From a phage, in the sequence record PZ386947.1: a stretch of DNA of 64,000 nt, one strand, 5' to 3'. The notes under the pieces are model-generated. The model saw only the letters and a list, made by a program, of their open reading frames with translations. It was not told the origin of the DNA and did not search any database. Positions 42,420 to 63,526 of the stretch are shown piece after piece. Every line of letters starts with the position of its first letter. Positions within the stretch are counted from its first letter, which is position 1. The position numbers were made by a program, and so were the translations under genes.

Positions 42420-42444
42420 TTCAATATCCTCATTTGCCCAATTA

Positions 42445-44998: not shown

Positions 44999-45000
44999 AA

Positions 45001-45177: not shown

Positions 45178-45179
45178 AA

Positions 45180-45599
45180 TTATTCCTTAAAGTGTGCTTT
45201 CAACATCTGATACAAGGACCATGCCTGTTCATTATTTTCAATAGTAACTTTCATGACCGGGAATTCTGTGAAATCTTCTATTTGTTCTTGCTCTTCCTGC
45301 TTTTGCTCTTCGGACGCTTGATATGGATTTCCAACTTCGTCAAAGAACTCTGCTTCATTCGTGGAGAGCCAGATAAAGTTTTCATCAAGGATATCACCGC
45401 CTGTTGCGTATCCAACCGTGCCAGTAGATGTCACAATTTTAGTAGGACGACTGAGATGGTCAACATCTAAAATTTTAAAAGGTTCCATACCTAAACGTCG
45501 TGCGTAGATTCCGTTATCAGTATGGTCTTTAATAAAAGCTTCTTGAGCTTGTTTATTTTTAAATTGATACCATTTATTAACTTCAAATCTAATAGCCAT
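45180..45599 (-). CDS. hypothetical protein (possibly goF-like)
   Basis: 139 aa ORF at the position of T4 goF; assignment is by position and length only. Confidence 0.35.
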
Positions 45600-45814
45600 T
45601 AATAAATTTCCTTCCAGTAAGTTGTACCGTCTTCAGTGATTTCACGGAATACATCATAAATCGGTTGTTTATCACCAACCTTTTCATACACATAAACCGA
45701 AGTCAAGTGAGTAAACTTGATGGTGTGTTCCTTTTTAACTACTACCAAATCTGGATCAAATAATACATCTTCAAATTCGTCATTAGTGCAATTCTGAACA
45801 ATTTTACGTTTCAT
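45599..45814 (-). CDS. hypothetical protein (possibly cef-like)
   Basis: 71 aa ORF, same length as T4 Cef; positional assignment only. Confidence 0.3.
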
Positions 45815-45827
45815 TACAATTTCCTCA

Positions 45828-46109
45828 TTAATTGAACAGTGGAGCGATGCGTTTCAGAAGAGTAGCAGCACCTTTGGCAAATTTTACATCATGAAAAACA
45901 GTTTCTTCTTCCGTTACAACACGAGCTTTAATGTTTTCACAATCCCAATTTTTGCGAACAATCTTCAAAAGCTGCAGTAAATCTTTACATTCAGCAATAT
46001 CGATAACACATCCACGAGAATCTTCCATTATCGCACGATAACCGTAAGCCATACCATAATCGTTGAAAGATTGCTCGATGATAATTAAGTTTTCCATTTT
46101 ATTCTCCAA
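45828..46109 (-). CDS. hypothetical protein (motB.x)
   Basis: 93 aa ORF. Confidence 0.35.
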   Translation of the reverse strand: MENKMENLIIIEQSFNDYGMAYGYRAIMEDSRGCVIDIAECKDLLQLLKIVRKNWDCENIKARVVTEEETVFHDVKFAKGAATLLKRIAPLFN

Positions 46110-46194
46110 GTTGTTTTCTGTATCAGTAGTTGATATTGATATAGTACCATAATCAACTACTGATGTATATAGTTTTATGAAAAAATTTTAAACT

Positions 46195-46686
46195 TTATGC
46201 ATAGAGAGCATTGCTATAGTGTTTAATCCAACTTTCAGGAATGACTTTGTATGTTCCTAAAAATACCACATTGTATAACTTAACGCCATCTTCTACCCAT
46301 TGATCGGTAATATATCCACACATAGCGCGAGTACGCCGAGGAAGTGGTTGTCCACCTTCGATAAATTTAAACTCATAAGGAGCAATGAACTTAATAGCTT
46401 TACCGAGTTTCCACTTAAAGTCTACACCTACATGCGAAGTATCAATCGTTTCAATTCCTTTAGCAGGAACAGCTTTCAAAAACGCAGATTCAAGAAATTT
46501 CGCGCGAACATAACCAAACTGAGGTTTAGACTTTCCATCTTTAGGAATGATACGCACTTTTACTTCAGAATCTTCATCTTTAACACCATGTTTAAGCTGA
46601 ATGCTTACAATTTCAACCAATTTTCCTGCTGCTTTAGAACGGGATTTATCAGATACACGAGCAATTTCACCAATATTAATAATCAT
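46195..46686 (-). CDS. motB: MotB-like DNA-binding protein
   Basis: 163 aa (T4 MotB 162 aa) at the expected position upstream of dexA cluster; early promoter directly upstream. Confidence 0.5.
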   Translation of the reverse strand: MIINIGEIARVSDKSRSKAAGKLVEIVSIQLKHGVKDEDSEVKVRIIPKDGKSKPQFGYVRAKFLESAFLKAVPAKGIETIDTSHVGVDFKWKLGKAIKFIAPYEFKFIEGGQPLPRRTRAMCGYITDQWVEDGVKLYNVVFLGTYKVIPESWIKHYSNALYA

Positions 46687-46730
46687 AGTTATCTCTCACT
46701 TGTTAAAAAGATTTTATACTCCACGGGACC

Positions 46731-46760
46731 ATTATACTCTGGTCCCAAGAGTTTGTAAAC
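46731..46760 (-). promoter_or_regulatory. early sigma70-type promoter for motB
   Basis: Minus strand GTTTAC (46760-46755), 18-nt spacer, TATAAT (46736-46731); -10 lies in the loop of inverted repeat GGGACC/GGTCCC. Confidence 0.5.
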
Positions 46761-46762
46761 TA

Positions 46763-47302
46763 TTAATTTAAAATAGCTACCACCGCACTACGAGGTACTA
46801 CACTAAAATCACCTGCATGAACAACGTTCAGAAGTTCAACACCATCTTCAATCCATTGGTCTGTTACCCAACCACAGACCGAAATAAATGGAGTCTTGAT
46901 AGCTACCGCACGAGTTAGAAGGTCAGTAGGATCGCATTCTTGAAAGAGGATGAACTCTGCTTCAAAAACTATAGTTTTAATTACTTCATCATTATCTAAA
47001 CGGTGCACTCGAATCACGTAAGCTTTATTCTTATCATGCCAGTTACTTTTTGAAAAGCTTTTAACCACAAACTCGCCTTCACCAAAAACATTAGTCAATG
47101 CTTTATAACCCAAATTTAGTTCAGTAGTTTTAATTTCAGTTTCAGCCAGTTTGTAGATTTTGCCGATTTCAATAGCGGTAGTCATAGTAGGTTCCTTAAT
47201 TTCCAGTGGTTTAACAGGGCATACATAAGTGCTTACAACATCAAAATCAATCAGTTTAGCTACCGGATTTGGTATGTATTCAGGATTATAATTAAATTTC
47301 AT
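46763..47302 (-). CDS. MotB-paralogous protein
   Basis: 179 aa; C-terminal segment CGWVTDQWIEDGVELLNVV parallels CGYITDQWVEDGVKLYNVV of the adjacent MotB-like ORF. Confidence 0.4.
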   Translation of the reverse strand: MKFNYNPEYIPNPVAKLIDFDVVSTYVCPVKPLEIKEPTMTTAIEIGKIYKLAETEIKTTELNLGYKALTNVFGEGEFVVKSFSKSNWHDKNKAYVIRVHRLDNDEVIKTIVFEAEFILFQECDPTDLLTRAVAIKTPFISVCGWVTDQWIEDGVELLNVVHAGDFSVVPRSAVVAILN

Positions 47303-47304
47303 AA

Positions 47305-47844
47305 TTATCTCATTTCAATAAAATCTATGAGTTCAGCATGCGATTTGCGGAACATTACTTGGTGCCCACCAATGATAACTTCATCTTCAGGAACTTCGTA
47401 TACAGCGAGATAAAATCCTTTAGAAGATAATTCTTCCCGCTCTTCTCGTGTGAACCATCTCATCATATCATATTCACTAGCGAAAGCAAAATGATAAAGA
47501 GCTATAAACCACCCTGGAATATGATATTCTACTCCAACATAATCTTTCTTGAACTTAGTATTAATTACTATATTAGCGTTTTTAACTAATAGTTTATCTT
47601 CGTGTGGTAAAGGAATTCTTTTATTATTATCGCTATGATGCATAAAATTAGGTCTGTCATAACCTACGTGTAATAGCCACTCTTCGCTCCATGAATCTAT
47701 TATACTCCTGTACGGCGTTATTTGAACACAAAGATTTCGACGTATTGTTATAGCATCTTCATAATCAAGAATACTAAACGATGATTCAACACGATAAATT
47801 TTCATTTTATTATCCTCAGTAGCTATGGTGTTATAATACCACAA
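47305..47844 (-). CDS. hypothetical protein (dexA-downstream)
   Basis: 179 aa ORF; early promoter GTTTAC...TGGTATTAT at about 47830-47865 upstream. Confidence 0.4.
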   Translation of the reverse strand: MWYYNTIATEDNKMKIYRVESSFSILDYEDAITIRRNLCVQITPYRSIIDSWSEEWLLHVGYDRPNFMHHSDNNKRIPLPHEDKLLVKNANIVINTKFKKDYVGVEYHIPGWFIALYHFAFASEYDMMRWFTREEREELSSKGFYLAVYEVPEDEVIIGGHQVMFRKSHAELIDFIEMR

Positions 47845-47868
47845 CTAACCGAGGAAGTAAACAACTTT

Positions 47869-48552
47869 TTATCGTTTTGTTGGAAGAGATAGAGGATCGC
47901 ATTCTTCCTCTGACGGAGCATCTTCAAGACCCATAGCATATCGCAAAGCATACTTCATCATCAGAATGTCTTTCGCACAGTCATGAATAGAATCATGCGC
48001 AACGAATCCATCTAAAGTTCCCTTTGGAAGAGGACATGTGGTCATATCACGAACAAGCAGAAGTGCTTCAATTCTGGTACGAATATCACGCTGATTCCAA
48101 AATTTACATGGTTCTAACTTAAATGTGTCAAGCTCATTCTCAGATACACCATTAAGACGCTGAATATCACGAATGAGATCGACTAAAATTGGAAAATCAA
48201 ATGACATTCCACGACACCAGCCTTGAGATTTCCAAGGATCGATATTATGTGCATTAATGTAATCATTAAATTTTGCAATACCATCGATAGTGCTTACATC
48301 TTCATCTGATGGTGCAATATTTTTTCGAGCTTCAGGAGATTGGTTCTTCCACCATTCAATAGTGCTTTTAGTAAAAAGACGATGTCCTTTTTGGCTTTTT
48401 AAATCAAATTTGATTTTAATGCCGCGTGAAACTAATTCATCAAATGTTTCAACTACTTCTGGGTTAGGGTCAAAAGCAATTACAGCTAAATCAATAACAG
48501 CTGCCTTTTCGCCGCTTCCCATTGTTTCAAAATCTATAATAAAATCAAACAT
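47869..48552 (-). CDS. dexA: exonuclease A (DEDD-type 3-prime to 5-prime exonuclease)
   Basis: 227 aa as in T4 DexA; N-terminal Exo I-like motif IIDFETMG. Confidence 0.8.
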   Translation of the reverse strand: MFDFIIDFETMGSGEKAAVIDLAVIAFDPNPEVVETFDELVSRGIKIKFDLKSQKGHRLFTKSTIEWWKNQSPEARKNIAPSDEDVSTIDGIAKFNDYINAHNIDPWKSQGWCRGMSFDFPILVDLIRDIQRLNGVSENELDTFKLEPCKFWNQRDIRTRIEALLLVRDMTTCPLPKGTLDGFVAHDSIHDCAKDILMMKYALRYAMGLEDAPSEEECDPLSLPTKR

Positions 48553-48794
48553 TAAATTTTCCTCGCTAAATCACGAATTTGACCTACAGTATAGTCTTGA
48601 ATATAAACTTTATTGATAGGCTCATCAATAAATTTTGCCATAGATTCAATATCTTTTTGTATTTCTTCAAGACTGTATACTATCTTTAAAGCTTTTTCGC
48701 GAATAGTAATATTTTCAGGACCCGGATTTTCTTCAATGACAGCTTTAACATTTGTCATAAGAGATTTAAATTGGTACCAACTTAATTCAATCAT
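48552..48794 (-). CDS. hypothetical protein (dexA.1)
   Basis: 80 aa; paralogous to the adjacent 86-aa ORF. Confidence 0.4.
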   Translation of the reverse strand: MIELSWYQFKSLMTNVKAVIEENPGPENITIREKALKIVYSLEEIQKDIESMAKFIDEPINKVYIQDYTVGQIRDLARKI

Positions 48795-49047
48795 TAATAA
48801 TCGCCTTATAAAGATAGCTAATTTCGCCTAAAACGTAATCATTGATTGTAACAGTTTTAACTTCACCACAAAAGAATTCTAACGCAATTAAATCTCGTTC
48901 AATTTCTTCTAATTGAAGCATCAACTTACTAGATTCTATTTTTACAGTTTCACGATTTTTGCTATAAGCAATTTCATAAATTTCGCTTACTTTATCTTGA
49001 AGAAGATAAAACTGATCTTTAGTTATTTCCACGAATAGCTTCCTCAA
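48787..49047 (-). CDS. hypothetical protein (dexA.2)
   Basis: 86 aa; shares LEEI(Q/E)(K/R)D...(V/I).I.DY..G.I pattern with dexA.1. Confidence 0.4.
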   Translation of the reverse strand: MRKLFVEITKDQFYLLQDKVSEIYEIAYSKNRETVKIESSKLMLQLEEIERDLIALEFFCGEVKTVTINDYVLGEISYLYKAIIND

Positions 49048-49053
49048 ATTTAA

Positions 49054-50373
49054 TCATACATAAAACACATCATAACGACCACGGGTAACACCAACATAAA
49101 GAAGTTGTTGAGCCAATTCAGCATCTGCATAATGAATACAAGGCGTATAAATGAAAGCACGGTCTACAGACATGCCCTGTGCTTTATGGAATGTTGATGC
49201 AGGAAGTGCTTTCACTTTACTAAACTGTGATTTAGCATCCCAAAAATCACTCCATGGAGCTTTTCCGCCTTTGTTCCAATTTTTATAAGTTTCTGCCGTT
49301 TTACCTAAAAATAGGTTAAACTTATACAGTTCTTCATCAGATGAAATTATTTTAATCTTTTCACGATAATATTCATCATCGCCATAAGTTTCTACTGTTA
49401 AATCCCAATGACGAATTAAGTATTCTCCAGGAACACCACGAGCTTTAACAAACGTCGATGTATACTCTGCTTCTATAATACGAACTAATTGTCCGTTATT
49501 AAAAATAATTTCTAGCACAGGCTTTCCATCAATTTTATATGTTTTAATTAATGGTTCCTGCATTACAATAATTTCACCGACAATAAAATCTTTATCAGTT
49601 TCAAAAATCTTTTTACGAATAATGCTATTTAACTTGTCAACAGATTTATTCGTAAATGCCATTACGCGATTTTCAAACAAATCATCTAGTGATTTTACGA
49701 TTGAAAAATAATTTACCATAAAATCGCGTAAAGCGGTATCACCTGTAAATCCACGTACTCCATGCCCGTCAACAATTTTATCATAAATCCACTTACCGTT
49801 ACGAACATCAGTAGCTACATCAATAATAGGAGCATTACTGCGTTTAACTTCAGTAAGTTCACACTGATAAAAATCTTTGTGTGTAAAGAACGGACTGATA
49901 TAAGCAGTGTTTTCTCCTGGGTCAACAGGTCTAATTTGCTTATTATCACCTATTCCAATTATAGTACACCACGGCGGGATAGTTGAAAGCAGAATTTTAA
50001 ATAGCTTTCTATCATACATTGACACTTCGTCGCAGATTAATACCCTGCATTTAGCTAAATCTGGTACTTCCTTCTGCTCAAAAAGAACATTTTCTTCATA
50101 TGTTACTGGGTTAATTTTAAGAATACTATGAATAGTACTCGCTTCTTTCCCTGATAGTTTTGAAAGAATCTTTTTAGCCGCATGCGTAGGAGCTGCTAAA
50201 ATAATACCAGTTTCACCCGTAGATATTAAAGCTTCAATGATGAATTTAGTAAGAGTAGTCTTACCGGTACCAGCAGGTCCATTAATAGTTACATGATGTT
50301 TCTTTTCTTTAATAGCCCTCATAACGATGTTAAAGGCATTTTTCTGGCCTTCTGTCAAATCATCAAATGTCAT
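49054..50373 (-). CDS. dda: Dda DNA helicase (SF1B)
   Basis: 439 aa as in T4 Dda; Walker A GPAGTGKTT. Confidence 0.9.
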   Translation of the reverse strand: MTFDDLTEGQKNAFNIVMRAIKEKKHHVTINGPAGTGKTTLTKFIIEALISTGETGIILAAPTHAAKKILSKLSGKEASTIHSILKINPVTYEENVLFEQKEVPDLAKCRVLICDEVSMYDRKLFKILLSTIPPWCTIIGIGDNKQIRPVDPGENTAYISPFFTHKDFYQCELTEVKRSNAPIIDVATDVRNGKWIYDKIVDGHGVRGFTGDTALRDFMVNYFSIVKSLDDLFENRVMAFTNKSVDKLNSIIRKKIFETDKDFIVGEIIVMQEPLIKTYKIDGKPVLEIIFNNGQLVRIIEAEYTSTFVKARGVPGEYLIRHWDLTVETYGDDEYYREKIKIISSDEELYKFNLFLGKTAETYKNWNKGGKAPWSDFWDAKSQFSKVKALPASTFHKAQGMSVDRAFIYTPCIHYADAELAQQLLYVGVTRGRYDVFYV

Positions 50374-50681
50374 CGGAAAGTCCCTGCAATTGGAATACTA
50401 ACAATACGCCCAGTATCTAGAATTCGTTGATATAATCTTTGTGTATCTACATCAGGCTTAACATGTTTAACTTCTATTTTATTAAACCAAAACTTGCGTG
50501 GAGTCTCAACTAGTCTTGGAATTCCCATACCTAAAGCTAGTTTATATTGGTCTTTGAGAGTAGTAAAAACTCTATCAGCAATCTCTCTTTCAAAAAATAC
50601 AGCAGGACGATGTTCATCAAGTGGAACTGGCGCAGTAAATCCATCTTTGTCTCGGTAAACTATCGCATATACATAAACCAT
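50370..50681 (-). CDS. hypothetical protein (dda.1)
   Basis: 103 aa ORF, ATGA overlap with dda. Confidence 0.45.
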   Translation of the reverse strand: MVYVYAIVYRDKDGFTAPVPLDEHRPAVFFEREIADRVFTTLKDQYKLALGMGIPRLVETPRKFWFNKIEVKHVKPDVDTQRLYQRILDTGRIVSIPIAGTFR

Positions 50682-50682
50682 A

Positions 50683-51429
50683 TTATCCTCGGATAAGTTT
50701 AAAAATTGAACAATTTAGCGGGTATCCTCTTTTCAGTTTAAGTTTATCAATAAAAGACAAGTTTTGATACCGCTCTACACCTTGAATAATTTTATCACAC
50801 ATATCATATTGCATTTCTGCTTCTGACAACTTTTTCACAATTTTCCAATCCGAGCCTTTAAGAAGAACGTTCAATTTAACAACTTCAGCGCCTTCTGCTA
50901 TGCGAGAACCATCAATACGTGCTTTAAGTGCTATAATCCTTAGCTTAATGTCAGAGGTCTGTTTTGATTTAGAAAGCTGAGAAATGTGTTCAATTCGGTT
51001 TTCACGTTTTTTCTGTATAGCTTTAATTTGATTATAAGTCTTTTTGATTTTAGCCCATTTCTTTTCATCTAAATTTAGTTTATGAACTTTTTTCGCAGAT
51101 GAACGACCAATTCGCAAAGCAAATAAATCACGCTTTTCAATCAACTCTTCTAAAGTATAATCAGAACGAAATGTATTATACTTTTTCTTTACTGCAATAA
51201 CATTCCCTTTAATGTATCCAACGTTATTATCAAAACGTTCTAATGATAATTTCTCTCCTTCAATACGATTATCAAAAGGTTCTCCCGAGTAAGCGCAAAC
51301 TTTTTGATCTAAAATGTTCTTAATGTAATTGAAGTCTAAGTTAAAATCTTTAGAACGTCTTTTTGCAGATGCCTGAGTATGCTCTAAACGACGTTTAATT
51401 TTACGAATTTGATTATTAGACAGCTTCAT
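50683..51429 (-). CDS. srd: Srd-like protein
   Basis: 248 aa basic protein at the T4 srd position between dda.1 and modA; contains an HNH-like segment C.YSG...LSLERFDNNVGYIKGNVIAVKKKYN. Confidence 0.45.
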   Translation of the reverse strand: MKLSNNQIRKIKRRLEHTQASAKRRSKDFNLDFNYIKNILDQKVCAYSGEPFDNRIEGEKLSLERFDNNVGYIKGNVIAVKKKYNTFRSDYTLEELIEKRDLFALRIGRSSAKKVHKLNLDEKKWAKIKKTYNQIKAIQKKRENRIEHISQLSKSKQTSDIKLRIIALKARIDGSRIAEGAEVVKLNVLLKGSDWKIVKKLSEAEMQYDMCDKIIQGVERYQNLSFIDKLKLKRGYPLNCSIFKLIRG

Positions 51430-51510
51430 ATTTTTCTCACATCTTACGGACGGTTAACTACTTATACTATAACATTTTTACCTTAACTTGTAAACAACTT
51501 TATGTAAAAA

Positions 51511-51535
51511 TGCTTTAAAACTTTCATGGTATAAT
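51511..51535 (+). promoter_or_regulatory. middle-promoter-like element on the plus strand (antisense to modA)
   Basis: MotA-box-like TGCTTTA at 51511-51517, then extended -10 TGgTATAAT at 51527-51535 with middle-promoter spacing; plus strand, facing into minus-strand modA. Confidence 0.35.
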
Positions 51536-51552
51536 GAATCTAAGTCCTTCCA

Positions 51553-52155
51553 TTATAGATTAAATCCTTCAAAATCAAGAGTATAGATAGTGTATGTTGA
51601 ATACTTTTTATACTCATATCTATCTGCAATTCTAAATACACTTCCAGCTGGTATCATTACTTCTTGTTCATCTGAAACTAATTCCATATTACGATAACGA
51701 TGACTATCCGGAAACTTAAAGTTTGGATTGTATTCTTTACAGCGTAGAGCTTTTATAGCATACTCCTGGAAATTGAATACCATAGGAGCTTTGAATTCAA
51801 AAATAACTTGTGTGTTATACTCTAAACCGGAAGCAAAATGTAGAGCTATATTTTTATCATATGAAGCTGATACGACTTTATCAAATGTAATAATATCAAT
51901 TCCTTGATTTAACACCTGCTTAGTCTCAGCTGGAACACCTCTCCAAAGAGGTTTATCGTTTGGAACCAAACGAGATTTGATTATTTCATTTAACCAAGAA
52001 TGATCGTCTGGTTTATTAGTAATACAATGAATTAAAAGTTCAATTTCAGATAAATTAAACCCTTCAGAAAGTAATTCTTCACGAATAGAAGCACGCACCG
52101 ATGCATCCATTGATTTTATTTTAAAATCTTTTAGTTGCATTACTGAGTATTTCAT
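51553..52155 (-). CDS. modA: ADP-ribosyltransferase ModA
   Basis: 200 aa as in T4 ModA; paralogous to adjacent modB; 4-nt overlap between the pair. Confidence 0.75.
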   Translation of the reverse strand: MKYSVMQLKDFKIKSMDASVRASIREELLSEGFNLSEIELLIHCITNKPDDHSWLNEIIKSRLVPNDKPLWRGVPAETKQVLNQGIDIITFDKVVSASYDKNIALHFASGLEYNTQVIFEFKAPMVFNFQEYAIKALRCKEYNPNFKFPDSHRYRNMELVSDEQEVMIPAGSVFRIADRYEYKKYSTYTIYTLDFEGFNL

Positions 52156-52775
52156 TCAACTACCTCAATATCATAAACTTTAAATGTTCCAAATGAATCG
52201 TGTAATTTTTCTTTTGAAATAGAAGTTATTCTATACTTTCCAATTGGAATCATCCATTCCTGTTCACGCACAATCATCATTAAGTTATCAGTACGCTCTG
52301 AATCTAATCCATCAGTATCTTCATACGTGTACTTAAACTCAGTATTAGGAGAAGAAAGTATAATATCGCTGATATGGTCAGAATAATTAAAAGCTTTATT
52401 AGTTTTTAAGCGAAGTATTATTTTAGTAAAATATTCAGCGTAAGAAAAAGAACATGCTGTGAGCAAACTAGTAGTAAATGAATCTACTCTATTCGTTGAA
52501 AACACTTCTCCAACTTGTAAATCTTTAATAAGTTCTTCTGTTGATTTTGATATACCACGATATAACTGATAAGGTGATTTAGTTAAATGCTTTTTAATGA
52601 TTTTATTCAACTGCCGATGAAGAGCTTCATTCTTTTTGGCTTCCATACATTGCCAAAGAACTGACTGCTCAAAGTCAGTAAATTTTTCACAGACCTTTTT
52701 ATACATATCATATTGAAAATCGACGCTTTCAGCTTTTATAGATAACTGTTCAACATCTGCAAGATTAATAATCAT
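52152..52775 (-). CDS. modB: ADP-ribosyltransferase ModB
   Basis: 207 aa as in T4 ModB; LYRGIS (R-motif region) and FSTNRVD (STS-like). Confidence 0.75.
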   Translation of the reverse strand: MIINLADVEQLSIKAESVDFQYDMYKKVCEKFTDFEQSVLWQCMEAKKNEALHRQLNKIIKKHLTKSPYQLYRGISKSTEELIKDLQVGEVFSTNRVDSFTTSLLTACSFSYAEYFTKIILRLKTNKAFNYSDHISDIILSSPNTEFKYTYEDTDGLDSERTDNLMMIVREQEWMIPIGKYRITSISKEKLHDSFGTFKVYDIEVVE

Positions 52776-52801
52776 GATAGCCTCCGTATACTTCAGAAGC
52801 T

Positions 52802-52831
52802 ATCATATCATCGTTAGAAAGGAAAGTAAAC
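52802..52831 (-). promoter_or_regulatory. early sigma70-type promoter for modB
   Basis: Minus strand GTTTAC (52831-52826), 18-nt spacer, TATGAT -10. Confidence 0.45.
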
Positions 52832-52842
52832 AACTTTTTGAA

Positions 52843-53025
52843 TTATTTTGCCCAGGGAGCCCAGGGCGGAGGGTCAAGATGGTATGAAGCTAGTTCTTCT
52901 AGAAGAGCATCTGGGGCTTCAATTCCATAATTCTGTAATACTATACGGTACTCTTTCTTATAATCACTGGAATCATTCTGGTTATTCGTAAAATGATTAT
53001 CTTCTAACATCTCAAATAAATCCAT
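52843..53025 (-). CDS. hypothetical protein (modA.x)
   Basis: 60 aa acidic ORF. Confidence 0.35.
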   Translation of the reverse strand: MDLFEMLEDNHFTNNQNDSSDYKKEYRIVLQNYGIEAPDALLEELASYHLDPPPWAPWAK

Positions 53026-53033
53026 ATTAATTC

Positions 53034-53504
53034 CTAGCGATAAAAACCAAATTGACGATTAGCTTCAATAATCTTTCTTTCTTCTTCGGACATTCTCCAG
53101 CGTAGTCCAACATCAAAATGAGCCCAGACCATCTTAACAAATGCATTTATATCTTTAATATCTTCAATAATGAATGATTTACTTTTAGAAGGTTGACTCG
53201 CTAATTTAACTTTATCGTCTTCAAACAGGTCAAAAAGACCATATTCATGGGCTCTTTTATAGCCTTTAATAGTTAAAGCTTCAGAAGAAGAAAAAGGTGA
53301 ATCTGTATTCTGCAAAATATCTTCAGTATGCTTTATAATTAGAATAACATTTTCTGGATATTTTCTTTCTTTTATATCTTTAATTAAAAGATCCGGATTT
53401 TCTGCTAAAGGAATAATTAATGAGCACTTTTTATCAAGTGTATTTACTGATTTACCTTCTTTGGACATAAATTCTATTGAATAATGTTTTGCTACTTCAA
53501 TCAT
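53034..53504 (-). CDS. hypothetical protein (modA.x)
   Basis: 156 aa ORF. Confidence 0.4.
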
Positions 53505-53657
53505 GTGATTTCCTTTTGCCTACTAATGGACCGTCAGGAATTTTATTTTCCTGAATGTATTTTTCATTTTCTTCCATCATTTTACTGCCAATTTTAAGAA
53601 GCAAATCCATTGCTTCATTTGCTTTAGCTTTAGCCTCTTCTAATATCATATCTCTGT

Positions 53658-53861
53658 TCACGATTTATCCCCATAGATGTCTCTCATTAATTTAAGCGCT
53701 GAGCGTTCTAATTTCTTTTCTTTCTCAGCACTAATCATTGATTTCATCCATTCTTCCGATTCGTTCTGCATTTCTTTATTTGCTTGTTCAACCCAACCAT
53801 CATCAATATACATCGAGTTTGGTCTATTGAACCATTCAAGCATCTTCTTCAGAGCTTTCAT
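53658..53861 (-). CDS. hypothetical protein
   Basis: 67 aa ORF. Confidence 0.35.
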
Positions 53862-54333
53862 TTGTTTTACCTAAAACAACAGTAGGAGCATCATCAAATT
53901 CATGAATTTTTAGCAAATTTGGATGTAAACTATTCCATACAGAAGAAATAAAGTATGATAACGCATCTTCACTTGCAATTATAAATTTATTTCCTTTATC
54001 TATTTTCCAACTATATAGTGAATCGTACGAATAAAAAGATAAAGGCTTATCATTATATTGTTCTGCGCTAACATTAATGTATTCGGATTTAGTAAATGCT
54101 TCAATTGCTCTAAATGGAATATTTGGTACAGTTTCAATAATACCAATCTTTTTAAGTTTTATTTCAGCATCTTCTGGAACTGGCATTGAAACGAAATTTT
54201 CTACGAGATACATTGGGTCACAATAACCCTTATCAATCATTACTGCTACGGTAATTGGAACGTCTTTAGCAAACGACATACTATTACTGCTAATATACAT
54301 TTCAAACAAAATCGCTTCCATAATTTTCCTCAA
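53836..54333 (-). CDS. hypothetical protein
   Basis: 165 aa ORF. Confidence 0.4.
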
Positions 54334-54668
54334 TCACAAGATGTAGATGAACAACTAGAATCACAAGAACTTCCACATGAATCGCCCGTCCATACATGAA
54401 CAGGAACATTAGTGTCATATGAATCAGAACTAGACTGTGTATTCTGCGTATTAGATGATGTAGGTGTTGACCAACGCCAAGGATTTTTATAATATTCCTG
54501 GGCTTCTTCATAAGTCATAGTAACTGCTTCTACTGTTCCATCTCCCATATAAACATATTCAACTACAGTTAAAGGGAGGTAGTCATTTGAAATAGGAACT
54601 ACACCTTCTCCGGGAGTTGTAGAGAAAAAATCCGTAAAGAAACTTTTAAACCAATTAAAGATAAACAT
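54330..54668 (-). CDS. hypothetical protein with Cys/Ser-rich C-terminal tail
   Basis: 112 aa; C-terminus ...[22 protein letters not shown]. Confidence 0.4.
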
Positions 54669-54874
54669 TACAAAAAGCCTCTTTTGAATTCGACCTGCTT
54701 CTCACCATAATCATATCGAATCTCTGCGTTAAATTCAACAGACCCATCTGCGTGCATCATAAATGAATGCACAACAACTTCTGTAGACCAGGGTTGCAAT
54801 TCATATTTCTTCATTACATGCCGTGAAATGATAATATCTAAATCTTCATTTGGTTTAATCCAACGATTTAACAT
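54668..54874 (-). CDS. hypothetical protein
   Basis: 68 aa ORF. Confidence 0.35.
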   Translation of the reverse strand: MLNRWIKPNEDLDIIISRHVMKKYELQPWSTEVVVHSFMMHADGSVEFNAEIRYDYGEKQVEFKRGFL

Positions 54875-54939
54875 AGTGCTCTCCTCTATAAGATAATTCT
54901 ATTATACCATACTCATTTTGATATGTAAACCATTTAAAT

Positions 54940-54964
54940 GAAAAAGGACTCCCGAAGGAGTCCT
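54940..54964 (-). terminator. intrinsic terminator downstream of soc
   Basis: Stem AGGACTCC / GGAGTCCT with CGAA loop plus U-run on the minus strand; identical to hairpin at 2098-2117. Confidence 0.55.
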
Positions 54965-54969
54965 TGAAT

Positions 54970-55215
54970 TTATTCACCAGTTACTTTCCACAAATCTTCG
55001 TTTGCAGTAATCCATTCAGTACGTTGATTTTCTTCATATACTGTAGAATATGCTGCTTTTTCTGAAGGGAATGTCTGGTAATGTGCACCAGAAATTTTGT
55101 GAACGTCAGAATAAAGAGGGAAAGCTACGGAAATTTCCTTTCCTTCAATTTTCTTATTTCCATCTAATTTCTGCTCAAATGTTTTGATATTAACATAACC
55201 ACGAGTACTAGCCAT
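54970..55215 (-). CDS. soc: small outer capsid protein Soc
   Basis: 81 aa; MASTRGYVNIKTFEQKLDGNKKIEGKEISVAFPLYSDVHKISGAHYQTFPSEKAAYSTVYEENQRTEWI... recognised as T4 Soc. Confidence 0.9.
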   Translation of the reverse strand: MASTRGYVNIKTFEQKLDGNKKIEGKEISVAFPLYSDVHKISGAHYQTFPSEKAAYSTVYEENQRTEWITANEDLWKVTGE

Positions 55216-55245
55216 GTAATTCTCCTTTTATTTAAATTACATGAT

Positions 55246-55253
55246 TATTTATA
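55246..55253 (-). promoter_or_regulatory. late promoter (TATAAATA) for soc
   Basis: Minus-strand TATAAATA about 30 nt upstream of soc ATG. Confidence 0.5.
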
Positions 55254-55298
55254 ATAAATTCTCGCGGCTTTTAAGTCGTCGTTTATTTAAACGAGCTA

Positions 55299-55817
55299 TT
55301 AATAGCCTCGGTCTTGACGAGCGAAATTTTCAGCATTTTTCAGATAATAAAGTTTAAATATTTCTTCAGCTGACATTCCAAGAGCAATAAATTTATTCAT
55401 GAAAAAGTGAAATTGGTCAATCAGTTCAAATTTAATTTCAAGCTGATCTTCAGGAGATAAGTCTTGAATTTTCTTGGATTGCATTTCAGAATAACGTTTC
55501 TTCCAAGGTTTCCATACGGCAGAAGCTTCTTTTTCACCATTACTCATACCACCAAGAGAAGTATATAGTTCGCGAGTTTCATCTGCGATATAATCGTCTT
55601 GGTTTCGCAACCAAGCAAGAACTTCTCCTGCAGTTTCAAGTGAATCGGGATGACGATTTGTTTCTGGTTTATCATTAGCCAAACGAATCTGTAAATGCCG
55701 CTGCATATCAAGCATAACCTGCAGTGGGTCAATATTGTGCATAATATTCTCAGCATATGCACGATTTGCTTTATCAACACCTTCGATCAAATGAGCGCAT
55801 TCATTAAAGTGAGCCAT
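55299..55817 (-). CDS. 56: dCTP/dCDP pyrophosphatase (MazG-like)
   Basis: Track ORF trimmed to ATG at 55817 (MAHFNECAHLIEGVDKAN...), 172 aa (T4 gp56 about 171). Confidence 0.8.
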   Translation of the reverse strand: MAHFNECAHLIEGVDKANRAYAENIMHNIDPLQVMLDMQRHLQIRLANDKPETNRHPDSLETAGEVLAWLRNQDDYIADETRELYTSLGGMSNGEKEASAVWKPWKKRYSEMQSKKIQDLSPEDQLEIKFELIDQFHFFMNKFIALGMSAEEIFKLYYLKNAENFARQDRGY

Positions 55818-55888
55818 TATTTTTCCTTTCAATTCATGAGTTAGTAGATTAATTATACAATAAATATATAAAGCAATAAGGAGGACAT

Positions 55889-56089
55889 ATGGTACAAAAA
55901 TTAATGGCACTTGTTAATGCCATCAAAGGTAATAAAAAGCGTATAGCTTTTACTATTTCTGCTATGGTAGGAATTTTACTCTGGAACTTTATTCTATCAC
56001 CTGTTGCAATTGCACATGGTATTAATATTCCAGTAGTTACTCTTGATACATTCGTAGATCTAGCATTTGCTTTAGTTGGGTTAATTTAA
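55889..56089 (+). CDS. small membrane protein on the opposite strand (orphan)
   Basis: 66 aa with two hydrophobic helices; strong AAGGAGG Shine-Dalgarno 5 nt before ATG; lies in the 56-61 intergenic gap on the plus strand. Confidence 0.4.
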   Translation: MVQKLMALVNAIKGNKKRIAFTISAMVGILLWNFILSPVAIAHGINIPVVTLDTFVDLAFALVGLI

Positions 56090-57114
56090 ATCTTGGCATA
56101 TTTAGATAGCCGCATTTTAGCCATCAACCCCTGGGCAATATTATTTTTCATATATTCCATAATTTGTTCAGGGGTTGCACCTTCCTTTCTAATCATATCA
56201 TTAACATCTTTTGATTTCCAGGGAGATTTATCCCAAAACATAACCCTTTCTCCTGCATCAACTAATTTAGTCATTCGTTTGATAGTGTCAGGATGACGAG
56301 GTTCATTATCTAAAACCCACACACGTCTATCTTTAAATGGAACAACTTCTAGGTCTAATTGACCACCCGTAATAGCTATACCATTTTCAATAAAAAGTGA
56401 ATCTATAGGTCCTTCTAGAACATATACATCACCATTTTTAACTCGTTCGACTCCATAGATTTTTGTTGCCTCAGGATAAGCTTTGATAGTGATATATTTT
56501 TGAGGAGCATCTTTCTTTAATGCACGTCCTTGAAAAGACTCAGCTTTTCCATTAGCATTATAAATTGGAATAACAAGACGAGGCTCAGGTATTTCCTTTT
56601 TGTATGTTCCCGGTGCTATGCTATTAACTAATTTAGGCCATTCGGTTGTAAACCAAAGATATTTCCATTTATCCTTTGGAATACAACGAGCTTTTATATA
56701 TTTTATAATTGCATGGTCTTCCGCCAGTTTATCTAATCGAACACATGACGGAAGAGATTTAATTATTTTCTTCTCAGGTTGTTTAGGAAGTTCTTTAGGT
56801 TTTTCTACTGGACGACTTTTACCTTTTTCTTTTCTTATTTCAAAGATATACTCACGATATAAATCAGGTTCAAACTCCTTTAAATATATTCCGATTGGTG
56901 CATGATAGTTACAGTTATAACAATGAATATTTCCTTCATTATTATCACCATAATACCATCCACGAGCTTTATTCTGGTCGGTTTTTGAATCTCCACAAAC
57001 AGGACATCTAAACCGTAATTTAAAAGTTGAACTATTATTTACTTGTGTGAATTTAGGTAAATGAGCCAATGCACGATATGCAAACTCATTATCAATCCAA
57101 GGTATTGATGACAT
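56086..57114 (-). CDS. 61: DNA primase gp61
   Basis: 342 aa as in T4 gp61; N-terminal zinc-binding CPVCGDS...CYNC and TOPRIM core. Confidence 0.9.
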   Translation of the reverse strand: MSSIPWIDNEFAYRALAHLPKFTQVNNSSTFKLRFRCPVCGDSKTDQNKARGWYYGDNNEGNIHCYNCNYHAPIGIYLKEFEPDLYREYIFEIRKEKGKSRPVEKPKELPKQPEKKIIKSLPSCVRLDKLAEDHAIIKYIKARCIPKDKWKYLWFTTEWPKLVNSIAPGTYKKEIPEPRLVIPIYNANGKAESFQGRALKKDAPQKYITIKAYPEATKIYGVERVKNGDVYVLEGPIDSLFIENGIAITGGQLDLEVVPFKDRRVWVLDNEPRHPDTIKRMTKLVDAGERVMFWDKSPWKSKDVNDMIRKEGATPEQIMEYMKNNIAQGLMAKMRLSKYAKI

Positions 57115-57116
57115 TT

Positions 57117-57281
57117 TTACTCTTCTTTTTCTTTAGATTCCTCTTTTTTCTTTTTAGGAATCTGCTCAGGACCTTTATTTACTACAGCGCCTGATGTTGT
57201 TCCAGTAGAGATATTTTCAGGACTACCACCTGAATCTCCAGCGACCATATCTTCTTTGATAAATTCTTTATATGTTTTCAT
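57117..57281 (-). CDS. small basic protein (61.1-like)
   Basis: Hand-translated 54 aa MKTYKEFIKEDMVAGDSGGSPENISTGTTSGAVVIKVLSRFLKRKKRNLKKKKR; below ORF-track size cutoff. Confidence 0.3.
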   Translation of the reverse strand: MKTYKEFIKEDMVAGDSGGSPENISTGTTSGAVVNKGPEQIPKKKKEESKEKEE

Positions 57282-57282
57282 A

Positions 57283-57909
57283 TTAACCTCTATTCATAAA
57301 AGCATTAAAAATTTGGTCATCAATAGAAACATTTACTTTAGACTGTTTTTCTGATGGTAATTCATATCCACATATTACAATTTTGTGATCAATATCAAAA
57401 TACACAGAAGCAATATGATTAATGATGTTTTCAGTAAAGTCTAAATCAACATCAATATCTTTTTGACCACAGCCCAAAGGATAAATAATGCGAGTAATTC
57501 GATTATCTTTAACAAATATTCCACCGACATACTCTGTACTGCGTTTAAAGTCTACACGCCGACGAAATGAAAAATATTCAGGCTCTTTATGAGCTCGGCT
57601 CATAGGACACAACGAGTAACTAGAATAAGAGATGTCAAATCCTACGCCTTCGATATGAGCCAAAGTGTCATGATTAAACCAATTATAATCGTACGCCAAA
57701 TCCATTAGATTATAATATGTAAAAGGCACCGGATTAACATCATTAGTCACAAGCATGTAATTAGCAACTGCTATAATTTCATTGTTTTTAACGAATACAA
57801 ACCGTGATTGATGCGAATGACCTGGACCCGCGTTTTCACGATTAATGATATAACACTGGGCACCTTTATATTTGTATGTATCTTTGCATTTGTGCATTTG
57901 ATAGAGCAT
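57283..57909 (-). CDS. hypothetical protein at the T4 61.2 position (possible AdfA-like anti-DarT factor)
   Basis: 208 aa ORF between 61.1 and sp; identification is positional only and rests on my recollection that T4 61.2 is AdfA. Confidence 0.35.
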   Translation of the reverse strand: MLYQMHKCKDTYKYKGAQCYIINRENAGPGHSHQSRFVFVKNNEIIAVANYMLVTNDVNPVPFTYYNLMDLAYDYNWFNHDTLAHIEGVGFDISYSSYSLCPMSRAHKEPEYFSFRRRVDFKRSTEYVGGIFVKDNRITRIIYPLGCGQKDIDVDLDFTENIINHIASVYFDIDHKIVICGYELPSEKQSKVNVSIDDQIFNAFMNRG

Positions 57910-58202
57910 TATTCACCTACCACTTCAGCGATGATATTTTTGTTATTAAAGTTTTTATCGCAATACAGAACATAATTATACTGCATTACACCACCAGACT
58001 TAAGTTGTTTTTGCACTTCAGCTTTCATTTCAGGACGATCGCGCTCAACGATATTCATAATATCCGCTTCAATTTGAGTTTCAACCTCAGTCTGATCCGC
58101 AGTCATAGACCATTCACACAAATCTTTATCATAACCTGCCATAGCAGGCTGAGCAGCACAAGAAGCTAAAGCAAAAATTGTGGCAAAGATAAATTTTTTC
58201 AT
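57909..58202 (-). CDS. sp: Spackle periplasmic protein (superinfection exclusion / lysozyme inhibitor)
   Basis: 97 aa as in T4 Sp; cleavable signal peptide MKKFIFATIFALASCAAQPAMA. Confidence 0.8.
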   Translation of the reverse strand: MKKFIFATIFALASCAAQPAMAGYDKDLCEWSMTADQTEVETQIEADIMNIVERDRPEMKAEVQKQLKSGGVMQYNYVLYCDKNFNNKNIIAEVVGE

Positions 58203-58230
58203 GATAATCTCCTCAGTAGTTTATGTTTAT

Positions 58231-58260
58231 ATAGTATCTCAATTTCCAACAAAAGTAAAC
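58231..58260 (-). promoter_or_regulatory. early sigma70-type promoter for sp
   Basis: Minus strand GTTTAC (58260-58255), 18-nt spacer, TACTAT -10. Confidence 0.45.
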
Positions 58261-58262
58261 AG

Positions 58263-58520
58263 TTATTTTAAAATTTCTGCGTAATCACATGTTACAAACT
58301 GTTTCTCTAGCTTGACGATTTTACGAAAGTATCTTTTGCATTGGCGAATCTGCCGCTTCGTAGGGCGAACAGCAAACTTAATAAATTCCACTCGACCAAA
58401 TGGAGGACTTTCTTCTGCTGGAATATCTAACACCAATTCCCACGTATCTGCAATAAGTGCTTTGAATTGCGTATTTTTCCTGACGTTATACGGAGTAGGT
58501 TTAAATAAAACAATATGCAT
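58263..58520 (-). CDS. small basic protein at the T4 61.4 position (possible TifA-like toxin-antitoxin inhibitor)
   Basis: Track ORF begins at a TTG; likely ATG at 58520 (MHIVLFKPTPYNV..., 85 aa) with GAGGA Shine-Dalgarno, 1 nt after dmd stop; TifA assignment positional and from memory. Confidence 0.4.
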   Translation of the reverse strand: MHIVLFKPTPYNVRKNTQFKALIADTWELVLDIPAEESPPFGRVEFIKFAVRPTKRQIRQCKRYFRKIVKLEKQFVTCDYAEILK

Positions 58521-58521
58521 A

Positions 58522-58704
58522 TTATCCTCGGCAATCCACTTCACACACTTTCTTGTCATCAATGAAAGCTTTAACTAATGCTTTATTAACTTCAGCATAT
58601 TGAGTAGTAGCCCATTGAACGTCATCTTTCATCATTGTGGTTTCTTTAGTAAACATGCTTTCATTCTTAAACCACCCCATAAAAACTACCTTTACCAATT
58701 CCAT
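58522..58704 (-). CDS. dmd: Dmd antitoxin (inhibitor of host RnlA/LsoA toxins)
   Basis: 60 aa; MELVKVVFMGWFKNESMFTKE...VDCRG recognised as T4 Dmd. Confidence 0.8.
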   Translation of the reverse strand: MELVKVVFMGWFKNESMFTKETTMMKDDVQWATTQYAEVNKALVKAFIDDKKVCEVDCRG

Positions 58705-60199: not shown

Positions 60200-60556
60200 T
60201 TAAAAGAATTTAAATTTTTTCTTTGACCTTTTATTAAATGCATCTTGCAGTTGCATTGTAATACATTTTTCTACATGAGGAGCTAACTCAGCTTTTCTTT
60301 CTTGGTCAAGAACAGCAAAGTCCATTACAACCTTTCCATCAACCCAATCTAATTTTGTCACATACACAATGTGTGTAGAACCATCTTCTAGTTTAATGAC
60401 AATCTCCTGGATAACATTTTCCATAGCAGATTTAATTATCTTAAGAGACTCATTAAAAAGACGTTCTTTTCTTTCTTCTTCCCCCTCCGAAGAGGGAGAT
60501 TCATCGATAATTTCTAGATCTAAATCATCTTTACTCATTAAATTCTTCCATATCAC
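60200..60556 (-). CDS. 40: gp40-like head assembly protein
   Basis: 118 aa (T4 gp40 about 120) between uvsX and 41; positional. Confidence 0.5.
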   Translation of the reverse strand: MIWKNLMSKDDLDLEIIDESPSSEGEEERKERLFNESLKIIKSAMENVIQEIVIKLEDGSTHIVYVTKLDWVDGKVVMDFAVLDQERKAELAPHVEKCITMQLQDAFNKRSKKKFKFF

Positions 60557-61712
60557 TTAACTGCTCGAGGTCAGTTTCTAAATCAGCAGCTGATTTACTT
60601 TTACTTTCTGGAGATTTAAATTTTTCAACCTTTGAGTTAATCAATTCATCAACTTCAGCTTCAACAATTTCATTACTATCAATAGCACCTAACTGATAAG
60701 CACGTTTAATAGCATCTCGGAATGGTTGATGCTTAAATAAAGGACCCCAGAATGTAGTGCAGTTGGTATCTTTTGCACGCCAAGATTTTTCTTCGCGAAT
60801 CATCTCGCCGGTTTCTTCATCAAGAAATTCACGAGCATACCAGCCATTTTTAGGTTTTACCACGAATCCTAATTCTAGAGCCATATCTAACAATCCAGAA
60901 TAAGGATCGATACCACCGTCAAATTTAACATCAATAAAGAATTTACTTTTTTCTTTAACGGTACGAGATTTTTCTACATTTAGAACAAATTGATACCCCT
61001 GAAGATCAGAACCATCTTTAATCTGACGCTTACCGATAATGAATACAGTATCAGCCGAATACATTACGCCTGTACCACCTGTCATCACGGTTTTACTAAA
61101 CATTTCAATTGTTTCAATTGTATGGTTAACCGCAACACATGGAATATTTTTAATGCTAAAGTAAGGAGTAACAATACGGAATAATGACTTCAGTGATTTA
61201 GCACGAGTCATATCTGCCACAGATTTTTCATTCAAGGCATCTTCAGTTTCTTTCTTAGAAGCCATATTACCGATTGAGTCGATGAATACAATAACTTTTT
61301 CACCGCGCTCAATAGCTTCAAGCTGATTCACCATATCAATTTTCAGCTGTTCAACTGACTGGATTGGCGTATGAATTACTCGTTCCGGGTCAACTCCCAT
61401 GGATCGCAAATAAGCTGGAGTAATACCAAATTCGCTATCATAGAATAGACAAACCGCGTCAGGATATTTGTTCAAATATGCCGCAACCATAGTCAAAGAC
61501 ATATTTGATTTAAAGTGTTTAGAAGGCCCTGCGAAAATAGTTAAACCAGACTGCATACCGCCATCAATCGCACCAGAAATAGCAATATTAAGCATTGGAA
61601 TTTTTGTACGAATTACATCCTTTTCATTAAAGAATTTAGATGTAGTCAGTTCAGCAGTCATTTTAGAAGTGGAAGCTTTAATCAAACGGGATTTTAAATC
61701 TGCAATAGGCAT
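60531..61712 (-). CDS. uvsX: UvsX recombinase (RecA-like)
   Basis: 393 aa; near-identical over long stretches to T4 UvsX as I recall it (e.g. DLKSRLIKASTSK, Walker A GPSKHFKS). Confidence 0.9.
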   Translation of the reverse strand: MPIADLKSRLIKASTSKMTAELTTSKFFNEKDVIRTKIPMLNIAISGAIDGGMQSGLTIFAGPSKHFKSNMSLTMVAAYLNKYPDAVCLFYDSEFGITPAYLRSMGVDPERVIHTPIQSVEQLKIDMVNQLEAIERGEKVIVFIDSIGNMASKKETEDALNEKSVADMTRAKSLKSLFRIVTPYFSIKNIPCVAVNHTIETIEMFSKTVMTGGTGVMYSADTVFIIGKRQIKDGSDLQGYQFVLNVEKSRTVKEKSKFFIDVKFDGGIDPYSGLLDMALELGFVVKPKNGWYAREFLDEETGEMIREEKSWRAKDTNCTTFWGPLFKHQPFRDAIKRAYQLGAIDSNEIVEAEVDELINSKVEKFKSPESKSKSAADLETDLEQLSDMEEFNE

Positions 61713-61789
61713 TCATTTTTTCCATAGGCATCATTATATTTTCCTCACTGGTTAAAGATAGAGTAATTATAACACAATAAATTTAGGCA

Positions 61790-62638
61790 TTAATCAACTG
61801 CTATTGGATGAATAGCATTAAACTTATGAAATGCTTCTGATTTTTCTTTACGAGAAACACACATGCGAAGAACCTTTAATGGCTCGTCTTCTTCACCCAA
61901 CGATTTTCGTTTTTCAATATTAGAAGTTTTCCAACGAGCTTGCTCTGGAAACTCTCTATTGATTTGCTCAAGCGCTCTATTATGTTTAGAATTACTACGA
62001 ATTGAACTGCACCCGCCAGGAGCTTGTGCTTTTCCAGATACAACCAGATATTTGAACAAGGCCAAATGCGGATAACCTTGATTAATTAAATTGAGAAATG
62101 CATACATATCTTCGCACAAATCAATTTTTCCATACCCAATTTGTTCTGTCGTAAGTTTTCCGAGGTCATACCATGTATTCGTGAATCCATATGAATTTTC
62201 ACGATAATTACCCCAAGATGAAGTAATTTTAAAAATAGGTAGACGAGCATGGCCATGATAATACCCACAATCCATGGCATCCTCAACATATTGAATCAAT
62301 TCATAGAACTGTTCACGAGTCAATTGATTGACTTTATCCACACAACGACGATCATCTCTTTTTCGCATTGAACTCATACGAATAGTAGTATCATCGTCAA
62401 TCATCCAGATTCGTTGACCTGCATACATATCAGTAATTGCTTTACGAGTACCAGCAATTCCATTTACATCATCAGGAATAGTTATAATTTTAGCTCTAGA
62501 CCCATAGGCATCATAATAAGCTTTTTCTTCATGTTCACGCACTACAATATGGGGTTCATAATCAGTCGGAAACATATCAAGGGCAGAAACTGCCCCGACA
62601 CGCTGATAACTTGGAATTACGAATTGAATCATTTCCAC
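61790..62638 (-). CDS. GT-A fold glycosyltransferase at the beta-gt locus (HMC-DNA glycosylation)
   Basis: 282 aa; N-terminal VIPSYQR and DxD-like IWMIDDDTTI motif typical of GT-A enzymes; sits between uvsX and gene 42 where T4 has beta-gt, but length and fold differ. Confidence 0.5.
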   Translation of the reverse strand: MEMIQFVIPSYQRVGAVSALDMFPTDYEPHIVVREHEEKAYYDAYGSRAKIITIPDDVNGIAGTRKAITDMYAGQRIWMIDDDTTIRMSSMRKRDDRRCVDKVNQLTREQFYELIQYVEDAMDCGYYHGHARLPIFKITSSWGNYRENSYGFTNTWYDLGKLTTEQIGYGKIDLCEDMYAFLNLINQGYPHLALFKYLVVSGKAQAPGGCSSIRSNSKHNRALEQINREFPEQARWKTSNIEKRKSLGEEDEPLKVLRMCVSRKEKSEAFHKFNAIHPIAVD

Positions 62639-63369
62639 TCACCTTTATAGTCTTTTTTCACAATATGAGTTTCGCCAGTATTCCACCAATGATCAACCAA
62701 GTAAAAATGACGAGAATATACATGAAGACTTCCGACATTCCATATAATAGAACCTGCTTTATACTGACGAGTTGAATCGCCGGCATTCAAATCAGATACT
62801 AATTTATCTAATACGTATTTTTGCCATGCATAATCATTACGGAATCCGAAGACCACGTCATTTGAGCGCATGCTTACTACTGCATTGACTTTCTTATCAC
62901 GAATCAGGTACTGTACTGTATTAGTACACATGAAATCTGACATACCATCTTTATTGTAGTCAAATTGCATGGATGGACGAGTATAAATCATGATACCACG
63001 TCGAGAATCAGGATTTTGACCAAGTTCAGCTAAACACATATCATACTGGGCATAGTTATCTTCTGACCAAATAGCCCAACCATAATTCGAGTTAATTTCG
63101 CCTTTAGAAGATGCTACCTGCTGCCAAATCTTTGGTGTTTCACCTGGAATATCTTTAACAAACAAGCTCTTAGATTTATACCATTCAAGTTCACGCTGAA
63201 TGTATTCATCATTAAGAGCGCCAAAAATAAACGGTTCATCTGCTACAAATGATGCGCCAATAATTTCAATAGTTTTAACACCGGTTTTATCAACTACGAA
63301 ATCTTTTTCTTTTAATGCAAGCCCCAAATGAAGACGGATTTCTTCAACTGTCATAGAGTCACTAATCAT
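62629..63369 (-). CDS. 42: dCMP hydroxymethylase
   Basis: 246 aa as in T4 gp42; thymidylate-synthase-like fold. Confidence 0.85.
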   Translation of the reverse strand: MISDSMTVEEIRLHLGLALKEKDFVVDKTGVKTIEIIGASFVADEPFIFGALNDEYIQRELEWYKSKSLFVKDIPGETPKIWQQVASSKGEINSNYGWAIWSEDNYAQYDMCLAELGQNPDSRRGIMIYTRPSMQFDYNKDGMSDFMCTNTVQYLIRDKKVNAVVSMRSNDVVFGFRNDYAWQKYVLDKLVSDLNAGDSTRQYKAGSIIWNVGSLHVYSRHFYLVDHWWNTGETHIVKKDYKGEWK

Positions 63370-63376
63370 TTAAACC

Positions 63377-63526
63377 TCAATTGATACATTCATATTTAAC
63401 TTGTAACAGTAATAAACCCCAACCTAAAATAATAGTTGGAATCATAAGAGGAACCGTTACACTATAGTATATACTTATTATAATCATCAAGATTAAAAGC
63501 AACACTGCTATAATTTTGCTTTTCAT
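63377..63526 (-). CDS. small membrane peptide
   Basis: Hand-translated 49 aa MKSKIIAVLLLILMIIISIYYSVTVPLMIPTIILGWGLLLLQVKYECIN; ATG overlaps imm stop (ATGA). Confidence 0.35.
   Translation of the reverse strand: MKSKIIAVLLLILMIIISIYYSVTVPLMIPTIILGWGLLLLQVKYECIN

Follow-up and report, generated by a model that had tools for sequence, protein, structure and literature searches.

A T2/T6-type gene for the second glucose of 5-hydroxymethylcytosine between uvsX and gene 42 of a T4-like phage

The activity of the enzyme that adds a second glucose to the DNA of phages T2 and T6, beta-glucosyl-HMC-alpha-glucosyltransferase (ba-gt, or ggt), has reportedly been known since the early 1960s, from papers by Kornberg and Lehman. 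Its genes in T2 and T6 are said to have been cloned by Winkler and Rueger in 1993, and the family of the TET-associated glycosyltransferases (TAGT) is said to have been defined by Iyer et al. in 2013. The T2/T6 enzyme glucosylates 5-hydroxymethylcytosine (hmC) that is already alpha-glucosylated, and the product is gentiobiosyl-hmC (PMC13216743, PMC13160076). When ba-gt is deleted from T6, only alpha-glucosyl-hmC is left and the sensitivity to Brig1 is raised (PMC11078745), and the DNA of T6 without ba-gt becomes a substrate of BapA (PMC13160076). In DNA from phage Solly, analysed by HPLC/MS, about one third of the modified cytosine is 5-hmdC and about two thirds is alpha-5-gentiobiosyl-mdC; alpha-glucosyl-mdC occurs at a low background level, and the beta-glucosyl form was not found (PMC13390438). 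The enzymes of T2 and T6 differ at a few residues only, and yet the gentiobiosyl-hmC level is about 5% in T2 (PMC13390438, PMC13160076), compared with 72% in T6; an intermediate ratio of 1:2:2 has been found in the Durham phages Geo, EL and BGP (PMC13390438). The level of diglucosylation thus does not evidently follow from the sequence of the enzyme alone, and expression or the alpha-glucosyltransferase partner could also matter for it. For T6, an AlphaFold3 model published in 2026 gave the enzyme a GT-A fold and placed it as the sister of GT2 (PMC13216743).

Typical TAGT proteins occur together with a TET/JBP-type dioxygenase, which makes 5hmC on DNA, and many of them are thought to glycosylate hmC directly. 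In the case of ba-gt, in contrast, gene 42 provides hmC already as a nucleotide, and the second glucose goes onto the first sugar and not onto the base. The beta-glucosyltransferase of T4 (beta-gt, family GT63) resembles ba-gt in its genomic position, its UDP-glucose donor, its beta (inverting) stereochemistry and its part in the hypermodification of hmC DNA. It is, however, a two-domain GT-B protein of 351 aa, which needs no metal and has bare hmC as its substrate, whereas the ba-gt described below has 280 aa in a single predicted GT-A domain and presumably alpha-glucosyl-hmC as its acceptor. The arabinosyltransferases of RB69 and DLP3 also put a sugar, the first or the second, onto a modified cytosine in Straboviridae DNA, but they are GT-B-like, they use an NDP-arabinose donor and their substrate is 5-hydroxycytosine. 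Their genes are found in a sugar-nucleotide synthesis cluster and beside rIIA, and not between gene 42 and uvsX.

The window considered here is a stretch of 64,000 nucleotides of phage DNA (PZ386947.1). An uninterrupted open reading frame occupies 61790..62638 on its minus strand, and the gene that an earlier note had recognised there from the letters of the sequence is confirmed: the frame is unbroken, homologues are encoded in 689 phage records, and the protein matches PHROG 842, 'beta-glucosyl-HMC-alpha-glucosyltransferase', at 6.4e-89 over residues 1-275. From the number of homologues and the strength of this match it can be judged that the frame is far beyond chance. The length of 282 aa given in the note counts from a GTG, and here the frame stands but the count does not, since translation probably begins with the ATG at 62632, two codons inside the GTG-started frame. 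The coding sequence of ba-gt is then 61790..62632 on the minus strand, with 280 aa and a TAA stop at 61790-61792, an assignment in which open reading frame, sequence identity, Pfam and PHROG concur. The ATG corresponds to the annotated limits of the coding sequence in the GenBank records of CM8, T2 and Solly, and a Shine-Dalgarno-like AAAGGTGAG is found upstream of it. Together with the TGA stop of gene 42 it forms the overlap ATGA (62629..62632, minus strand; sequence GGTGAGTGGAAATGATTCAA), and this arrangement of start and stop suggests that the two genes are translationally coupled.

A pseudogene was considered and rejected, since the frame has neither a frameshift nor an internal stop codon and the protein is the same as that of Solly, a phage with measured gentiobiosyl-hmC. 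Three antisense frames on the plus strand within ba-gt (61863-62075, 62249-62371 and 62414-62650) have no match to a PHROG family and are considered to be chance frames. When promoters and terminators were scanned for between 60400 and 64000, the sites were no commoner than in shuffled sequence, and one terminator-like site was found against 1.9 expected from the shuffles. This site, at 62580-62596 on the minus strand over codons 13-20 of ba-gt, is a GC-rich hairpin of 7 bp with a T-rich run behind it, and is probably there by chance. Rfam at gathering thresholds and ARAGORN gave no hits across the whole window.

The neighbours are those that had been claimed. On one side lies uvsX, for a UvsX-like recombinase (60531-61712, minus strand; PHROG 97, 1.5e-109), and on the other side gene 42, for dCMP hydroxymethylase (62629..63369, minus strand; PHROG 160, of the thymidylate synthase family, 4.9e-67, and the annotation of CM8). 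The DNA of gene 42 is 95.6% identical to that of T4 gene 42. That T4 has its 351-aa beta-gt in the corresponding place is also borne out, with segA beside it. Shigella phage CM8 (MK962750, genus Tequatrovirus) has exactly the sequence of the stretch 61400-63400 (100% identity), and a base-by-base check of window 40028-64000 against CM8 1-23973 gives no mismatch over that span. Position 40028 is base 1 of the linear CM8 record, at the end of rIIA, and the window straddles the arbitrary ends of this record, as is expected for a circularly permuted genome. When the annotation of CM8_00029 is mapped with an offset of +40027, gene 56, for dCTP pyrophosphatase (dCTPase), falls on 55299..55817 of the minus strand, where the frame translates without a stop; CM8 1-18500 and window 40028-58527 have the same sequence. 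The gene for the alpha-glucosyltransferase is located at CM8 34861-36063, some 12 kb beyond ba-gt and outside the window, and the annotation of CM8 1-45000 contains no beta-gt. In T2, T6 and Solly, too, uvsX, ba-gt and gene 42 follow one another in this order on the minus strand. The 2-kb stretch 61400-63400 is matched by 606 phage records, 475 of which cover at least 80% of it; by this count the arrangement is the common one among T4-like coliphages, and T4 is the exception.

Some smaller features of the region may be recorded here. Between gene 42 and imm there is a very hydrophobic frame of 49 aa (63377-63526, minus strand), the start of which overlaps the imm stop; it is unannotated in CM8 and annotated in Solly (SOLLY_046). 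In other records a '42.1' or a hypothetical gene is found inside the 2-kb stretch 61400-63400. Directly 3' of the ba-gt stop, at 61789-61766 on the minus strand, occurs TGCCTA-N12-TATAAT, which is absent from the listing of the general sigma-70 scan. A MotA box has the sequence TGCTTA, with a spacing of about 12 nt to the -10 element downstream of it; the element found here resembles a middle promoter of the MotA-dependent type of T4, and from its position it could drive uvsX.

The ba-gt protein of the window is 100% identical over its 280 aa to CM8_00040, which is annotated as 'beta-glucosyl-HMC-alpha-glucosyl-transferase', and to SOLLY_044 of phage vB_Eco_Solly. Comparison with the T2 and T6 enzymes, which the earlier note had proposed as a check together with a Pfam search, gives an identity of 99% over the full length of 280 aa for T2 (AP018813, MH751506) as well as for T6 (AP018814, MH550421). 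The differences from the window protein are R11H and P251S in both T2 records, and Y40N, D55G and R106H in both T6 records, to which AP018814 adds the in-frame loss of one aspartate of a DDD motif and MH550421 adds Q10amber. The window allele has R11 and P251 in common with T6, and Y40, D55 and R106 in common with T2; it carries neither R11H nor the lesions of the two T6 records. In length, in its position between gene 42 and uvsX, in the ATGA overlap, in sequence, and in having an alpha-glucosyltransferase partner in the genome, the gene is like ba-gt of T2 and T6 and shows no difference of substance from it. It belongs to the ba-gt group of T2 and T6 inside the TAGT family, and is not a mere look-alike.

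The Pfam search places the protein in PF20691 (TET-associated glycosyltransferase), a family of GT-A fold close to GT2, with 38.9 bits against a gathering cut-off of 27.5 bits, and residues 3-207 are aligned to positions 2-205 of the 205 in the profile. NCBIfam has no match. The contrary outcome named in the earlier note, an ordinary T4-type beta-gt, is not what is found: sequence similarity to T4 beta-gt is undetectable (best E = 2.2), and the predicted fold is GT-A instead of the two-domain GT-B fold of that enzyme. From the arabinosyltransferases of the RB69 type the protein is set apart by their published description, as its model is GT-A and its neighbour is a gene 42 of the T4 type.

A sequence search of the PDB returned no relative (best E-value 1.6, for an unrelated protein), and the evidence on the fold therefore comes from prediction. 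An AlphaFold2 model built on the family alignment (mean pLDDT 93.1, pTM 0.91) has alternating strands and helices in a single Rossmann-like alpha/beta/alpha domain, which can be superposed on solved GT-A enzymes. Together with the match to PF20691 this model supports the assignment of ba-gt, made in the earlier note, as a GT-A fold glycosyltransferase. In a Foldseek comparison with viral models, a Klebsiella-phage ba-gt comes out on top (TM 0.96), followed by many proteins called 'TET-associated glycosyltransferase'.

A homology search in two rounds yielded 51 relatives with identities as low as about 13%, most of them with PF20691, and the conservation counts that follow refer to an alignment of 48 of these. 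R11 (62600-62602, minus strand), R63 and the DDD motif are invariant, and I6, P7, R32, Y39, T62 and R212 are conserved in at least 90% of the sequences. The VIPSYQR motif that had been noticed is present as residues 5-11 (62600..62620, minus strand), after strand beta1 (E3-7 in the model), with I6, P7 and Y9 nearly invariant; it resembles the 'PxYN' nucleotide-binding start of GT2 enzymes. The second motif, IWMIDDDTT, is likewise present as residues 75-83 (62384-62410) and contains the DxD-type triplet D79-D80-D81 (62390..62398, minus strand), directly after strand beta4 and between E74-78 and E82-90. The conservation of this triplet, on which the GT-A reading had been made to depend, is complete in the TAGT family (48/48). 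In the model, its place after the fourth strand (74-78) is the usual DxD site of GT-A enzymes, and by analogy with these it is predicted to bind a metal and the UDP diphosphate. At E174-D175 ('CED'; 62108..62113, minus strand), where a helix of residues 174-184 starts in the model, D175 is found in 42 of the 48 sequences and is a candidate for the catalytic base of an inverting GT-A enzyme. A family-specific PGGC(S)xxR motif, P205-R212 (61997..62020, minus strand), with G206 and G207 in 42/48, C208 in 39/48 and R212 in 46/48, possibly contacts the acceptor or the DNA. The IPSYxR, TR and DDD motifs are common to TAGT proteins and the window protein, as is the predicted fold for the TAGT proteins of phages.

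A pathway can be proposed in which gene 42 and gene 56 would together exchange cytosine for hmC in the phage DNA. Gene 42 would supply hm-dCMP, the base of which is glucosylated at a later stage, and the dCTPase of gene 56 would keep unmodified cytosine out of the DNA. The alpha-glucosyltransferase would then put a first, alpha-linked glucose on hmC, and ba-gt would move a second glucose from UDP-glucose to O6 of the first one. In this last step the anomeric carbon of UDP-alpha-glucose would be inverted, with DDD holding a divalent metal and the diphosphate and with D175 as the base, and the product would be alpha-gentiobiosyl-hmC (beta-1,6-glucosyl-alpha-glucosyl-hmC). That gentiobiosyl-hmC is the product also in the present phage is read from the phage with the identical protein and is, to that extent, an expectation by analogy. 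As R11 and DDD are intact in the window allele, the pattern would probably be T6-like: gentiobiosyl-hmC would make up about two thirds and bare hmC about one third, and monoglucosyl-hmC would be scarce. We hold it to be almost certain that the gene encodes the second-glucose enzyme of the T2/T6 type, with this pathway and a T6-like pattern. The earlier suggestion of a sugar chemistry other than that of T4 beta-gt is thereby upheld, through the identity with the gentiobiose-adding enzymes of T2, T6 and Solly.

Other readings can be compared with this one. A genuine ba-gt could work at the low level of T2, so that a few per cent of the base would be gentiobiosyl-hmC and most of it alpha-monoglucosyl-hmC. 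The window protein is only two residues from the T2 enzyme, T2 itself has its low level, and intermediate ratios occur in related phages that carry ba-gt (PMC13390438). However, one of these two residues is R11, invariant in the 48 sequences, which the window protein keeps and which is H11 in both T2 records, and Solly, with an identical protein, reaches about two thirds gentiobiosyl-hmC (PMC13390438). A T2-like level is, with this, very improbable.

The gene could also stand in functionally for T4 beta-gt and put beta-linked glucose directly onto hmC that the alpha-glucosyltransferase leaves bare. It shares the locus of T4 beta-gt, its enzyme is predicted to be inverting and to form a beta linkage, and among the records, some of which have 'hypothetical' for the homologues of ba-gt, there are those that carry the annotation 'b-gt' or 'putative beta-glucosyltransferase'. 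But in the Tequatrovirus phages with ba-gt, including the one with the identical protein, beta-glucosyl-hmC was not detected, and about one third of their hmC remains bare (PMC13390438); T6 without ba-gt has only alpha-glucosyl-hmC (PMC11078745), and the protein is unrelated to beta-gt in sequence or fold. Such a substitution is hardly to be believed. The transfer of another sugar, for instance arabinose as in phages of the RB69 type, deserves mention because the TAGT family is diverse and many of its members come without alpha-gt or beta-gt and have products that are not known (PMC13216743). It is made practically negligible by the identity of 99-100% to enzymes of gentiobiose-bearing phages, and by the resemblance of the RB69/DLP3 arabinosyltransferases to GT-B enzymes (PimA, sucrose-phosphate synthase) and not to GT-A (PMC13326640). 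The 95.6% identity of gene 42 to the hydroxymethylase gene of T4 makes it improbable, further, that gene 42 codes for the 5-hydroxy-dCMP synthase found in arabinosylating phages.

The second-glucose enzyme of the T2/T6 type also invites a look at the alleles of the reference phages. In the two T2 records (AP018813 and MH751506), R11H falls on a residue that is invariant in the family, and from the sequences it is a candidate cause of the gentiobiosylation of about 5% in T2 against about 72% in T6. An IMG/VR scan found the codon context of H11 in 0 contigs and that of R11 in 5, small numbers which say just that H11 is not common. In T6 record MH550421 codon 10 has changed from CAG to TAG and the coding sequence is annotated from a later start, and in AP018814 an in-frame deletion of 3 nt at codon 79 removes one aspartate of the invariant DDD. 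The sequenced laboratory stocks of T6 may, accordingly, not all be wild type for gentiobiosylation. T4, finally, contains a stretch of 25 nt (NC_000866 24238-24262) that is 96% identical to the last codons and the stop of ba-gt (window 61788-61812), and it sits between the stop of T4 beta-gt and the start of segA; apart from it, the homologous parts of the window and T4 end at window 61700 and 62647. To judge from this alignment, the stretch has the look of a scar: ba-gt would have been ancestral at the locus, and beta-gt (plus segA) would have taken its place in T4. Taken jointly, that the window allele is the natural, fully active form, that the T2 and T6 laboratory stocks are impaired, that R11H explains the level in T2, and that beta-gt/segA of T4 replaced an ancestral ba-gt, is a tentative proposal and on the whole an unlikely one to hold in all its parts.

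The finding is correct but already known, and the locus described here is in the ordinary state of most T4-like coliphages. It adds nothing new on the class of the enzyme, and the reading as a T6 type follows directly from what had been annotated and published before. Papers from 2024-2026 already give the GT-A fold, the shared position with T4 beta-gt and the effects on defence systems (PMC13390438, PMC13216743, PMC11078745, PMC13160076). For annotation there is a lesson, in that many records still label ba-gt as 'hypothetical', 'b-gt' or 'putative beta-glucosyltransferase'. That the modification bears on the sensitivity to defence systems, as had been expected, is borne out by the literature on gentiobiosyl-hmC, which in vitro resists the Brig1 glycosylase and the BapA glucosidase, and is still cut by enzymes of the GmrSD/BrxU type (PMC11078745, PMC13160076, PMC13216743, PMC13390438). 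Which defences of bacteria are able to attack a T-even phage depends on the pattern of sugars on its hmC, and for phage therapy and the prediction of host range it is useful to know that the present phage is of the T6 type and not of the T4 type.
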